Part shown: one piece after another, positions 524 through 26,183 of the stretch | Numbering within the stretch: position 1 is the first letter of the stretch | Layout of the letters: every line of letters begins with the position of its first letter | DNA from: Demequinaceae bacterium | GTDB lineage: Bacteria; Actinomycetota; Actinomycetes; Actinomycetales; Demequinaceae | Reading direction: 5' to 3' | Assembly (NCBI GenBank): GCA_965250005.1 | Contig: OZ252279.1 | Location: 1,800,001 to 1,832,000, forward strand | Length of the DNA stretch: 32,000 nucleotides | Made by a program: the position numbers and the translations under genes | The notes under the pieces: model-generated | The model's input: only the letters and a program-made list of their open reading frames with translations | The model's database searches: none | Told to the model about the DNA's origin: nothing

Positions 524-598
524 GTGCAAGTCCGAAGTCTGATTGTTGGCGCCGTCGTTGTCGCGCTTTCTGCATCCATGGCTCAGCCAGCTTCTGCG
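524..598 (+). other. Predicted Sec signal peptide
   Basis: MQVRSLIVGAVVVALSASMAQPASA|FEA has a basic n-region, a hydrophobic core and an AxA-type cleavage motif. Judged by eye only. Confidence 0.65.
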
Positions 599-3500
599 TT
601 CGAGGCCGTTGTTGCGCCCGTGCCTGCCGCTCAGTTCAGCTCCGAGACCCCTGCGCCGGCTCCGGATTGCCAGCTCTATCCGCTTGCGCTCTCTACAGAG
701 GTACTCGCGGAAGCCGAGGTGGGCATCAACTTTTTGCGTGTGCCGCTTGGTAATGGTACGGGCAACTTTTCGTTCTTGAGTTGGGCAGGCGTGAACGACG
801 CCGACGTGTTTGCCGCCGCGATCGCCGCTGACGGCGGCGCCGCTGGTTACGTGAACCCAGAGGACCCGGCAGACTCGCAGCTTGACTTGGGCGACTGGGT
901 GCAGGGACTGCCTGGTGTCAAGAACAGTTCTGGAGTGCGCGCCAACTTGGACGCTCTGATTGGCGCAGAGATCGCGGTGCCAACGTGGAGCGAACTACGC
1001 GGCGAGGGCGACGAGCTTGACTACAGCGTCGATGGTTTCGCGCGAATCAAGCTCCTCAGTTACAAGCTTTCCGGCAAGGGCTGGATTAGTTTCGAATACG
1101 TGGGTGACACCCAGTGTTACATCGAACCAGAAACGAACCAACTGCCGCTTGCTGAGGCTCAGGCTCTCGACACGGACAGCGAGACCCCAATTTTGATCGT
1201 GCTCGAAGGTAGCGACGCAGACGGCGATGCCATCACGTTTGACCTCGCGAGCCAGCCGGCGAATGGCGCACTCTGGGGCACCGCTCCGCAACTTACCTAC
1301 GTATCAGACGCCGACTACATTGGGCCAGATAGCTTCGAATTCACAGTGAATGACGGCTCTGACGATTCGCAGTTGGCAACCGTAAGTATCGATGTCGCGC
1401 GTCCCAACGACGCGCCCGTCATCACCTCGACGCCCTCACTCTCAGGACAGTTGGGCGACCCATACGATTACGCGGTCGCTGCCGTCGACCCGGACGGGGA
1501 CGCGCTCGCCTACACGCTCGCTACGACAGAACCCGGCTTGACCGTCGACCCGGCAACTGGCCTGGTGTCGGGACTGCCCCAGTCCTCCGCATGGCTCGAG
1601 GCTGTTGGCGGACCCGACCCTGCTTGCAAATCCTTCGACAGGAGTGTCTCCGAGCTCAACATGGAGCTTGGCTGGCATTGGAGAAGCCCAATCAATGGGC
1701 TGTCGAGCACTGTCATGGGTACTCCCGTGGTCGCCAGGATCGTTGACATTAATGGCGACGGTGTAGTGGATGAACTTGATCCGCCCACGGTTGTGTTCGC
1801 GGCGTTCCTCCGCACCTGGTCGGATGGTGCGTACGTAGTTGCAGTCAATGGGGAGACTGGCGCAACGCTGTGGATCAGTTCCCGGCGCAGGGTTTCCGGA
1901 TTCTCGTCGCCGGCAGTGGGAGACATCGACGGCGACGGCCGACTCGACATCGTCTATGTTGGCGCGCACGATCGCACGGAGTTGGTTGCATTCGACCACA
2001 CGGGCGCCCTGAAATGGATCGCCCCGACGGGGCCGGTCAGCCCCCATTTGCCCCTGCGCAACGCGTGGGACTGGGTTTCTCTTGCTGACCTTGACGCCGA
2101 TGGCGACGTCGAGGTGGTGCACGGAAACCGCGTGTTCGATGGTGCTGGCAACCTGCTGTGGATAGGCGCGGACACCACGGGTGGACACTCGGCTGGCGGA
2201 GTCGGATCGATTGTCGCTGACCTCGACCAAGACGGATTCCAGGAGGTCATCGCGGGCCGAACCGTCTACACCCATGACGGCCAAATAAAGAGCACCAATC
2301 CGGACTTGCCAGAGTTTGCATTTAATGCGATTGGTGACTTTGACGGTGACGGTGACCCGGAGATAGTCGTCAACGGCACGGGCGGCTCGAGCGGGATCTT
2401 TCTGGTCGACCACGAGATGAATGTCATCTGGGGGCCTGTTGAGCACCCGGGCGCATCGAGCAGGGTAGGTGGCCCGCCCACCGTGGCCGACTTTGACGGC
2501 GACGGCCACATTGACATCGGCATCGCCGGAGAATCTCGGTACGCCACGTTCGACCGCAACGGGGATGTGGTGTGGTCGCAGATTATCCAGGACTATTCGT
2601 CTGCCGTGACCGGGTCTTCGGTATTCGATTTCGACGGCGACGGACGGGCGTCGGTGGTGTTTGCGGATGAGTACCACTTGTACGTGCTTGATGGCCCTAC
2701 TGGCGTTCCGGAGGCCACTTTCTCCAACCGATCGGGCACGGCGCACGAGTTCCCCATCGTTGTTGACTCGACCGGCGACGGGCTCGCGAACATCATTGTG
2801 CCCGCGACTCAGACGCGTTTGAGCGTGGGCGGCGTCCGCATGTACCAGTCGGCTGATTTGTCGTGGATGCCTACGCGCTCCATCTGGAATCAGCATGCGT
2901 ACTCGATCGGAAACGTCAACGACGACGGGACCATCCCCGCCCACCCTGAACCCAGCTGGCAGACGCACAACACGTTCCGTCTCAACAGCCAACCTGATCG
3001 CACCGCGTACGGACTTTCGGACATCTCACTGGGTGGGCTCTCGCTGACGGGCGGCCCCACGTATCACACGCTCAACGTCACCGTTGAGAGCCGCGGACTC
3101 GCGGACTACCCCGGACAGAGCTCCGTTGAGTTCTTCGCGGTCGATGCCGCGGGCGTCGAGGTCAGTTTGGGCGAGGTTGCTGTGCCCGAACTGGTGCGCG
3201 GAAGCTCGCACGTTGCGCACCTCGTGGGAGTCAACGCAGCCGACGTCGAAGGCAAAGTGGTCAAGGCGGTTCTTCGCGAGCCTGCCGGGATGACGCAGTG
3301 CGACAACTCGAACGACTGGGCCGCCGCGCAGGCGGTCACGGTCACCGCAGAGGACCCGTTTGGGCTGGCGGACTCGCAGATTTACTTGCTCAAGCTCCAC
3401 GGGGCGAACACGGCGCCCACAATTTCGAGCGCGGCAGTTCAAGCCGTTGAGGCGCGCACGCTCTACGAGTACCCGGTGGTGGCGACCGATGCCGACCGCG

Positions 3501-25600: not shown

Positions 25601-25787
25601 AGCCACAAGGACGTAAGATTCATCGCTTGGGCACCGGCTTCCGTTGGGGTGCGCGCGTCCAAGTCGTGCAAATGCCTGACGAGGACGAGCCCCAGACCCA
25701 CTCGCTTTGCATTAAGACCCGGTGCGCGCTCGCAGAGGTTGGTACTGCGTTTCATATAGCCTGCTGTGAAACAAGCGCCCGATACGG

Positions 25788-26183
25788 GTGATTTCAGATG
25801 CGACCGGCGCCTCCTCCAACCCGGATTACACGCTCGATGGTCTGGGTAACCGGGCGTCCACGTCCACGGACGGCACACGTGTTGCCTCCACGGTCAATGT
25901 CCTGGACCAGCTGACCACTCAGGGCAGCAACGCGTTCACCTACGACGACGCGGGCAGGCTCACCTCAGCCACAGGCCCGGGTGGCACGTCCACTTTTGCA
26001 TGGTCATCCCAGGGTGAGCTACTCGCGGCAGCCACCCCGGCCGGGACCGTCGACTACGCCTACGACACCGATGGCAACGTCACCACCCGCACCGAATCCA
26101 GCACCGCCGTCGACTACGTCTATGACACGTTGGGCGGCCTGCCCCGAGCTGTGTCGGCGCTGTGCGGGGAGACAAACCCATGA
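25788..26183 (+). pseudogene. Orphan rhs cassette 5, truncated at both ends (no RHS core end, no toxin)
   Basis: ISDATGASSNPDYTLDGLGNRASTSTDG... is colinear with main 8246-~8615 (offset +17542). Homology stops abruptly at ~26160 after ..GLPRAVSA, and an unrelated short tail runs to a stop codon. Confidence 0.8.

Follow-up and report, generated by a model that had tools for sequence, protein, structure and literature searches.

What could a row of truncated rhs genes, standing behind a complete one, be for? The question is raised by a locus in a Demequinaceae bacterium (assembly GCA_965250005.1, contig OZ252279.1, positions 1,800,001 to 1,832,000 of the forward strand; this stretch of 32,000 nucleotides is referred to as the window), where a full-length rhs gene has five rhs 3' fragments behind it on its own strand, designated orphans or cassettes 1 to 5. 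The locus is a C-terminal-displacement Rhs array, a kind already known from enterobacteria, Snodgrassella and WapA of Streptococcus suis. In the reading that we favour (rough probability 0.65), the array serves as a set of expressed immunity genes combined with a recombining store of toxin/immunity modules.

Layout of the array

The full-length gene (the main gene, 524-9592) was compared with the rest of the window by blastn and five co-oriented 3' fragments were identified, with 81-93% identity over 0.37-3.0 kb (E-values of all self-matches 0 to 1e-21); no repeated copy of the main gene 5' of position 5984 was found in the window. The fragments enter the main sequence at 7434, 5984, 7351, 8150 and 8246 in array order, which bears out the differing entry depths given in a preliminary description of this DNA, and the offsets that it listed for cassettes 2, 3 and 4 proved exact. 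The alignments are colinear, gapless in those three cassettes and on a kb scale, which rules out mere similarity of YD motifs as the origin of the repeats. The main core and the cassettes, each with its C-terminal toxin region (CT) where there is one, are laid out as follows.

524-9592, plus strand: full-length rhs gene, 3022 amino acids (aa) from GTG 524 (Pfam and NCBIfam)
5984-9019, plus strand: stretch of the main core that is found again in the orphans; putative recombination substrate
10242-10534, plus strand: cassette 1 core, left part, equivalent to main 7434-7681 (blastn match 10242-10527 to main 7434-7677)
11839-13177, plus strand: cassette 1 core, right part, equivalent to main 7682-9019 (blastn match 11840-13181 to main 7682-9023, 84.5%)
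13178-13825, plus strand: cassette 1 CT, with a hydrophobic segment, a linker and a divergent putative toxin of the family termed B here
16097-19132, plus strand: cassette 2 core, equivalent to main 5984-9019 (blastn, 87.4%, gapless, offset +10113)
19133-19780, plus strand: cassette 2 CT, putative family-B toxin (AF2 model and Foldseek search)
20681-22349, plus strand: cassette 3 core, equivalent to main 7351-9019 (blastn, 86.8%, gapless, offset +13330)
22350-22997, plus strand: cassette 3 CT, putative family-B toxin, identical to the CT of protein P0001 in the related contig L015
23922-24791, plus strand: cassette 4 core, equivalent to main 8150-9019 (blastn match 23922-25108 to main 8150-9336, 93.3%, gapless, offset +15772)
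24792-25397, plus strand: cassette 4 CT, linker in common with the main gene to 25108, then a unique putative toxin tip
25788-26152, plus strand: cassette 5, a bare core piece of 365 bp, equivalent to main 8246-8610 (81.4%, offset +17542)

Cassettes 1 to 4 are 5'-truncated and colinear with the core, and each has its own CT and a putative immunity open reading frame (ORF) downstream. Colinearity up to the core end had been described for all four; it is unbroken in cassettes 2 to 4, while the match of cassette 1 (about 85% identity overall to the main gene) is interrupted by an IS3-family insertion sequence (IS) and by a hexanucleotide expansion. A CT and a linked small ORF had been ascribed to every fragment, but cassette 5 has no core end, CT or immunity gene and is cut at both ends, so that the "five cassettes" amount to four toxin/immunity cassettes, one of them IS-disrupted, and a bare fragment. 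The core-end sequence RARWYDPTTARFLSADPWHGNPANPISLNRYxYANADPVNxHDPTG is unchanged across all copies. The start of an 859-aa ORF (11246-13825) was considered as a true gene start and rejected, its 5' part being the reverse strand of the IS.

Exchange between the repeats

Two contigs of a related strain, L015 (15 kb) and L020 (6.5 kb), were recovered by exact-protein look-up from one ENA metagenome sample; both are low-coverage metagenome contigs labelled '2x', and their flank is 99.3% identical to the window. The comparison across strains, which the preliminary description had suggested, revealed the same array with other modules at positions 1 and 4. In L020, the CT and immunity gene of the main rhs gene are present (98% identical; the main immunity protein was recovered as identical), and cassette 1 comes next, lacking the IS. 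The core of this cassette is 97.9% identical to that of the window, and from the DPxG motif onward it has another CT and another ORF of 257 aa. On L015, cassettes 2, 3 and 4 succeed one another as in the window, with cassette 2 cut at main position 6871 as against 5984 in the window, and with an additional cassette, containing Colicin_D and Colicin_immun domains, located 5' of cassette 2. Cassette 4 of L015 has the same core and linker as the window but diverges inside the linker, leading into a different toxin tip and immunity gene. Between L015 and the window, the unique CT/immunity stretches agree at 100%, compared to 77-97% for the repeated cores. Breakpoints of exchange occur at three places: the DPxG motif, the interior of the linker (after EDVDRS) and the linker end (after KPPxxC).

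The cores are mosaic. Perfect tracts of at least 30 bp between the main gene and the orphans number 1-17 per orphan, the longest per orphan being 33-191 bp. Cassette 2 is about 95% identical to the main gene over its first 1.1 kb (including the 191-bp perfect tract) and then 71-90% per 100-bp window, and cassette 4 has a 172-bp perfect tract across the core/CT boundary. Longer tracts were observed between paralogues in the comparison with the related contigs: 470 bp (Lc2 and Lc3), 281 plus 198 bp (L0 and Lc3) and 174 bp (the main gene of the window and Lc5), with surrounding sequence about 85% identical. Perfect tracts of this length within such sequence are beyond what point mutation would leave and point to recent gene conversion among the core repeats. 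Recombination among the repeats, as first proposed, is thus supported by mosaic identity and by the strain comparison, though not by any main-to-orphan recombinant; of the recombination said to delete intervening cassettes, conversion and module replacement are seen directly and deletion is not.

Outside the window, another full-length Rhs protein (P0275, 3030 aa) is recorded for the same 2.0-Mb genome. Its first 2000 residues match the main protein at about 100% identity and its final 800 core residues at 81-95%; its C-terminus has a CT linker of the same type and an Ntox24 tip. The cores of cassettes 1-3 are nearer to P0275 (91-93.5% at the aa level) than to the main gene (88.6-90.3%). The nearest actinobacterial relative in the genome collection (L001, from an Actinomycetota metagenome-assembled genome (MAG), 45% aa identity) contains a direct repeat of the rhs 3' core of 1.1 kb, 95% identical, at 17676-18793 and 22930-24046. 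The repeat downstream of its main gene holds a second core-end motif and, judged by this repeat, that lineage has at least one orphan too. The L001 locus has many frame breaks, which are probably sequencing errors.

Export, translation and selection

The main protein comprises, in order, a putative signal peptide (524-598), Big_9/Cadherin-like and FG-GAP domains, six He_PIG Ig domains, DUF6531, an RHS/YD shell and the Rhs-associated core. RHS_repeat (PF05593) is matched at 7.9e-135 in about 20 stretches, TIGR01643 (YD_repeat_2x) at 2.3e-110 and the Rhs-associated core model TIGR03696 (NCBIfam) at 9.8e-16 over residues 2760-2833; Pfam also matches He_PIG, Big_9, FG-GAP_3 and DUF6531. The core ends in DPWHGNPANPISLNRYLYANADPVNMHDPTG (HDPTG) at 9019, and the DPxG core end is the signature of an aspartyl autoprotease which releases Rhs toxins (PMC8636562).

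The earlier assignment of the protein to a Sec-type Rhs depends on translation beginning at GTG 524, from which a canonical-looking signal peptide is read; the public gene call (P0155, 3004 aa) begins at ATG 578 and lacks one. GTG 524 is preceded by the Shine-Dalgarno (SD)-like sequence GAGGGGGA at 512-519, and the N-terminus read from it, MQVRSLIVGAVVVALSASMAQPASA followed by FE, combines a basic n-region with a 13-residue hydrophobic core and a cleavage-like site between ASA and F. GTG 524 has the better SD site, ATG 578 is likely a start-codon mis-annotation, and Sec export of the main protein appears likely, subject to this choice of start codon. No PAAR, VgrG-binding, LXG or WXG domain was found in the main protein (Pfam), and none of the ORFs of the window resembles genes of a type VI or type VII secretion system (T6SS, T7SS), in agreement with the statement that no T6SS or ESX genes lie nearby.

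The orphans had been described as lacking a signal peptide, N-terminal domains and a convincing start site, and domain scans, self-comparison and a start-codon check all agree. Neither a signal peptide nor the Ig/FG-GAP N-terminal domains are present in the orphans (Pfam and self-comparison), and no SD-like sequence accompanies any in-frame ATG, GTG or TTG codon close to the orphan 5' ends. From their sequence, then, the orphans look non-exportable. An SD-like site is present in four of the five cognate immunity genes (main and cassettes 2, 3 and 4; that of cassette 1 is weak) and in a lone ORF of the DUF7660 family.

The orphan cores extend over more than 8 kb without a stop codon or frameshift and are under purifying selection, with a ratio of nonsynonymous to synonymous substitution rates (Ka/Ks) of 0.11-0.17 at Ks 0.18-0.63, whether an orphan is set against the main gene or against another orphan (0.14 for the right part of cassette 1 and 0.17 for cassette 2). 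The pair formed by the CTs of cassettes 2 and 3 and the pair formed by their immunity genes gave Ka/Ks values of 0.1-0.24. Low Ka/Ks together with intact frames indicates that the orphan copies diverged mainly while they were parts of translated genes. By these measures the orphans are neither old decaying pseudogenes nor recent in-situ duplicates of the main gene, the latter being rejected on the Ks values, and their pattern of divergence fits imported or displaced 3' ends.

Function of the array

We propose that an incoming piece consisting of a core 3' end, a toxin and an immunity gene would replace the end of an rhs copy and push the older end downstream, and that repeated C-terminal displacement of this kind would have produced four truncated toxin/immunity fragments, one bare core piece and one lone immunity-like ORF. 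The array would then act as a set of expressed immunity genes; this is its most likely role, since the orphans have neither an export signal nor a ribosome-binding site, while four of the five immunity genes do have such a site. It would also store toxin/immunity modules, to be reshuffled by homologous recombination or gene conversion between cores 81-93% identical, and if the main core crossed over with that of an orphan, the exported protein would acquire the orphan toxin.

Several points weigh against this proposal. No main::orphan junction was found in the window or in the related contigs, and the sole related main 3' end (in L020) bears the window's own main CT and immunity gene. With a simple deletion, the immunity gene of the main toxin would be lost and the recombinant left exposed to the toxin of its siblings. 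The cores are 81-93% identical, less than the 95% in the Salmonella case described below, and the mismatches may strongly lower the frequency of crossover. Decay is tolerated, as the IS-disrupted cassette 1 and the bare cassette 5 show, and the signal peptide of the main protein hinges on GTG 524 as the start. The mosaic cores could in part stem from assembly or polishing between paralogues or strains. Scans for sigma-70 consensus promoters and for terminators gave fewer matches than shuffled controls and are uninformative on expression.

The alternative that survives best, although we hold it possible rather than probable, is a fossil array kept for immunity only, in which the fragments would be dead remnants of displacement forming a poly-immunity locus against the toxins of relatives, and the toxins would never be used again. 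The SD sites found on immunity genes and on none of the orphans speak for it, as do the IS-disrupted and bare cassettes, the lone DUF7660 ORF within the array and the absence of a main::orphan graft from the relative L020; other polymorphic toxin loci, moreover, often contain orphan immunity genes (PMC10327511, PMC5727410). Set against this are the more than 8 kb of orphan core and the four CTs in intact frame at Ka/Ks 0.1-0.17 (which could merely reflect recent displacement), the inclusion of toxin-bearing cores in the recent conversion tracts, the second full-length gene with the same N-terminus and another tip, and the observation that strains differ in whole CT and immunity modules and not in immunity genes only.

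An array that is an active toxin-switching system, not a passive record, is unlikely. Frequent non-reciprocal conversion from silent cassettes into expressed genes would in that case change the toxin while the immunity genes are kept, with breakpoints at DPxG or inside the conserved CT linker, in a manner resembling antigenic variation by pilE/pilS; the array would operate together with the second full-length rhs gene, identical over the first 2000 residues and located in the same 2.0-Mb genome.

It is improbable to a further degree that the orphans are expressed from internal starts and act inside the cell as toxin-antitoxin-like modules without being a recombination reservoir. Their long open frames would allow this, gene callers start cassette 3 at an internal ATG (P0151/P0001, 737 aa), many Snodgrassella alvi orphans are transcribed (PMC5727410) and a Salmonella orphan Rhs is reported as such a module (PMC7043789). 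On the other side, the candidate start codons of the orphans all lack an SD-like sequence (a check that covers SD-led, not leaderless, starts), and the sigma-70 scan, which fell below its controls and is uninformative, provides no promoter evidence for the orphans. Mis-assembly of repeats can be virtually dismissed as the source of the tandem fragments or mosaics: repeats of 0.4-3 kb are hard to assemble and the comparison contigs are of low coverage, but the copies differ by 7-19% and are each flanked by unique CT and immunity sequence, the order 2-3-4 and the succession of main gene and cassette 1 were found independently in L015 and L020 with one indel in 8 kb, and a clean 3-bp duplication flanks the IS in cassette 1, for which a corresponding empty site exists.

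Comparison with known systems

The C-terminal displacement model reportedly goes back to Jackson in 2009, and orphan rhs genes are said to have been studied by Poole in 2011 and Koskiniemi in 2014.

Both C-terminal displacement and the re-recruitment of orphans have been described (PMC5727410, PMC4436062), and the literature on Salmonella and S. alvi agrees with the preliminary description that orphan rhs modules and their recombination are established in Gram-negatives. As in the enterobacterial rhs loci of E. coli K-12 and Salmonella LT2 (STM0291/STM0292), a complete rhs gene together with its immunity gene is followed by 5'-truncated fragments on the same strand, each with core homology, its own CT after DPxG and an immunity gene, and without export domains; in both cases the core homology offers a route by which an orphan CT could reach the main gene (PMC3967940, PMC4436062). 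Activation of a Salmonella orphan was demonstrated experimentally through 522 bp of 95% identity, and the recombinants retained both loci (PMC3967940). The present locus differs in its host, an actinobacterium, and in an N-terminus with a putative signal peptide and Ig-like/FG-GAP domains in place of a PAAR/VgrG-linked T6SS module. Its core homology is longer and more diverged than in Salmonella (1.2-3.0 kb at 84-93% compared to 522 bp at 95%), and its CTs have an extra conserved hydrophobic/linker module which holds some of the breakpoints.

The arrays of S. alvi (Steele et al. 2017, PMC5727410) share the long rows of truncated Rhs with immunity genes after a complete gene, slow evolution of the toxins, rapid recombination and module content that differs among close strains. 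In S. alvi the arrays are Gram-negative and associated with a T6SS, and start sites and transcription are on record for many of the orphans, whereas no start signals were found here. WapA of Bacillus subtilis and S. suis likewise combines a signal-peptide Rhs (putative in the present case) with a polymorphic CT and a downstream immunity gene, and the S. suis locus contains a truncated downstream copy (CT2), lacking the signal peptide and part of the core, which has been termed an Rhs orphan (PMC12704120). Unlike WapA, the present locus belongs to Actinomycetota and not Bacillota, its N-terminal domains are Big_9/Cadherin-like, FG-GAP and He_PIG, its array is deeper (four cassettes and a fragment), and relatives that share its architecture are frequent also in Gram-negatives (Marinobacter) and Planctomycetes. 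A further likeness, a weak structural one, is that of the modelled family-B tip to Tre23, the ADP-ribosyltransferase CT of Rhs1 of Photorhabdus laumondii (PMC8636562), both being Rhs C-terminal toxins (putative for family B) of about 130 residues.

The setting had been presented as exceptional. This is so for lineage and array depth, but less so overall, given the published S. suis WapA orphan and the orphan of L001. New in this case are the little-studied lineage, how deep the array is, and the evidence from comparison that conversion and module replacement are ongoing. Knowledge of Rhs orphan arrays and of their re-use comes almost wholly from T6SS-bearing Gram-negatives, and this locus is a clean, deep actinobacterial example in which a close relative shows modules replaced both at orphan positions and at the main gene. 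It offers a practical system for measuring the turnover of toxin cassettes in a Gram-positive, and yields uncharacterised putative toxin/immunity pairs (family B in cassettes 1-3, the main tip and the cassette 4 tip). The current picture of the evolution of polymorphic toxin loci is unchanged by it.

Toxin tips

The CTs fall into three families in all, not five; the claim that each cassette has its own CT is correct as regards separate tips, but the library is partly redundant. The CTs of cassettes 2 and 3 are 79% identical, and that of cassette 1 is 32-33% identical to both. The cassette 4 CT has its first 105 residues or so in common with the main CT and then diverges, the homology running 317 nt beyond the DPxG core end. 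All CTs open after DPxG with a hydrophobic segment of 30-45 residues and an acidic/Pro-rich linker, followed by the toxin. The hydrophobic segment may serve as a membrane-entry module.

9020-9589, plus strand: main CT, about 190 residues, 3' of the DPxG autoproteolysis motif
9020-9336, plus strand: main CT linker, a hydrophobic segment and an acidic/Pro-rich stretch ending in KPPKNC; about 93% identity with cassette 4
9337-9589, plus strand: putative main toxin tip; no Pfam, NCBIfam or PDB match
9020-9336, 13178-13390, 19133-19300, 22350-22520 and 24792-25108, plus strand: hydrophobic segment/linker stretches (sequence reading)
13388-13822, 19304-19777 and 22521-22994, plus strand: putative family-B toxin tips of cassettes 1, 2 and 3; no Pfam model

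The linker type of the main CT recurs in cassette 4' of L015 and in the paralogue P0275, and the main and cassette 4 linkers have a Ka/Ks of 0.17. The CTs and immunity proteins of the window gave no Pfam, NCBIfam or PDB sequence match, that of cassette 4 included.

A family-B profile identified 267 cluster representatives among 1.84 billion proteins (HMMER scan), nearly all of them with the match at the C-terminus of Rhs, TcdB/SpvB-type or short proteins, with the consensus TVYRVWGGxSGPxGxSWTTVNP...AGLPxxNTG...GNxGGLPE. The cassette 2 CT had no match in an index of 5.8 billion proteins, in which the window's own cluster is seemingly not indexed. An AF2 model of family B was built on a 40-sequence alignment (a 3-sequence alignment gave a pLDDT of 28) and reached a pLDDT of 79 and a pTM of 0.74. 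Its best PDB match, a weak one, is Tre23 (6XTD; Foldseek E-value 0.13, probability 0.72, TM-score 0.44, 10% identity). R9, W22-T23 and E105 (alignment numbering) are invariant or nearly so and are named as candidate residues only; family B matched no Pfam ADP-ribosyltransferase (ART) family and no PDB chain at the sequence level. ART-like activity of the family-B tip is, on the strength of the model, a lead and not a finding, and the tip may represent an unnamed, widespread ART-like toxin class.

The main toxin tip has a single homologue, P0280, 70% identical over 44 aa. In another organism, a P0280-type tip (an 85-aa remnant, L021 771-1197, also in L022 and L023) lies beside suf genes, and next after it comes a 62-aa relative of the main immunity protein (43% identical). 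The adjacency of tip and immunity homologues in L021-L023 supports the pairing of the main toxin with its putative immunity gene. Further on, these contigs contain a short Rhs-tip orphan and another small ORF.

Putative immunity genes and neighbouring reading frames

The candidate immunity ORFs start 0-53 nt past their toxin genes, mostly with SD sites. They are listed with two further ORFs of the array.

9598-9792, plus strand: putative main immunity gene, 64 aa; ATG 6 nt past the rhs stop, SD GAGGAGG
13831-14565, plus strand: putative cassette 1 immunity gene, 244 aa; GTG 6 nt past the stop, weak SD
19821-20609, plus strand: putative cassette 2 immunity gene, 262 aa; SD GGGAGA, public call P0276, identical in L015
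23050-23820, plus strand: putative cassette 3 immunity gene, 256 aa; SD GGAG, identical protein in L015
25397-25600, plus strand: putative cassette 4 immunity gene, 67 aa; ATG overlaps the toxin stop, SD GGGAG, public call P0278
14743-14994, plus strand: lone immunity-like ORF, DUF7660 (Pfam 27.4 bits against a cutoff of 27, marginal); strong SD GGAGGGAG
15214-16053, plus strand: 279-aa ORF between cassettes 1 and 2; public call P0279, no family match

The immunity proteins of cassettes 2 and 3 are 61% identical to each other. The cassette 1 immunity ORF had no family match in Pfam, NCBIfam, PADLOC or PHROGs, and the last two databases returned nothing for any of the immunity candidates, the 279-aa ORF or a 268-aa ORF (26190-26996, minus strand) located between cassette 5 and a second IS3 element. 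The 268-aa ORF likewise had no Pfam or NCBIfam match and is absent from L015. The stretch 13182-16983, which contains the DUF7660 ORF and the 279-aa ORF, has no counterpart in L015 or L020.

Insertion sequences and a hexanucleotide repeat

Two IS3-family elements were identified, one inside cassette 1 and one at the right edge of the array.

10535-11838, minus strand: IS3-family element inside cassette 1, 1304 bp; TG..CA inverted ends, TAC duplication at 10532-10534 and 11839-11841
11467-11844 (ORF), minus strand: orfA of this element; HTH_Tnp_1 (Pfam)
10553-11470, minus strand: orfB of this element; rve, HTH_21 (Pfam)
11396-11509, within this element: ALIL frameshift pseudoknot RF01497 (Rfam, 77.6 bits)
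27254-28526, minus strand: second IS3-family element (IS2), right array edge; 26-bp perfect inverted repeats

The element in cassette 1 is intact and has the features of IS3, namely orfA/orfB, a -1 frameshift signal, a DDE integrase core, TG..CA ends and a 3-bp duplication. L020 represents its empty site, with CTCACGGGTTAC joined directly to ACCTATGAC, and this uninterrupted site indicates that the insertion is recent. IS2 lacks a target-site duplication, the flanking triplets being CTG (left) and GTT (right), and in L015 a longer terminal core fragment meets the flank at exactly the boundary base of IS2 (window 28527). From the lack of a duplication and the junction at the same base it follows that an IS-associated rearrangement has reshaped the array's right edge. 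The nearest relatives of both elements are found in Actinomycetota plasmids.

The cassette 1 core also contains an in-frame (ACGGCA)n repeat at 10311-10369 (9.7 copies, a 42-nt expansion, encoding (GN)n). The same site has one or two units in the main gene and in cassette 3, and the repeat of L020 is shorter than that of the window by two units. By this comparison (ACGGCA)n is a length-variable microsatellite inside a gene fragment that is taken as non-translated.

Relatives and genomic setting

The nearest homologues of the main protein are in a Demequinaceae MAG (51%) and an Actinomycetota MAG (45%), and homologues of the same architecture are widespread, including the Gram-negatives Marinobacter and Hahella as well as Planctomycetes. 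Scans of GTDB genomes and JGI metagenomes yielded no close relative (best aa identity 45% and 29%, respectively). The locus is chromosomal and is flanked by ispE on one side and by a TetR gene, tRNA-Gln, glmU and prs on the other. The tRNA-Gln gene (anticodon TTG) is situated at 29245-29318, between the TetR gene and glmU, just past the right edge of the array.

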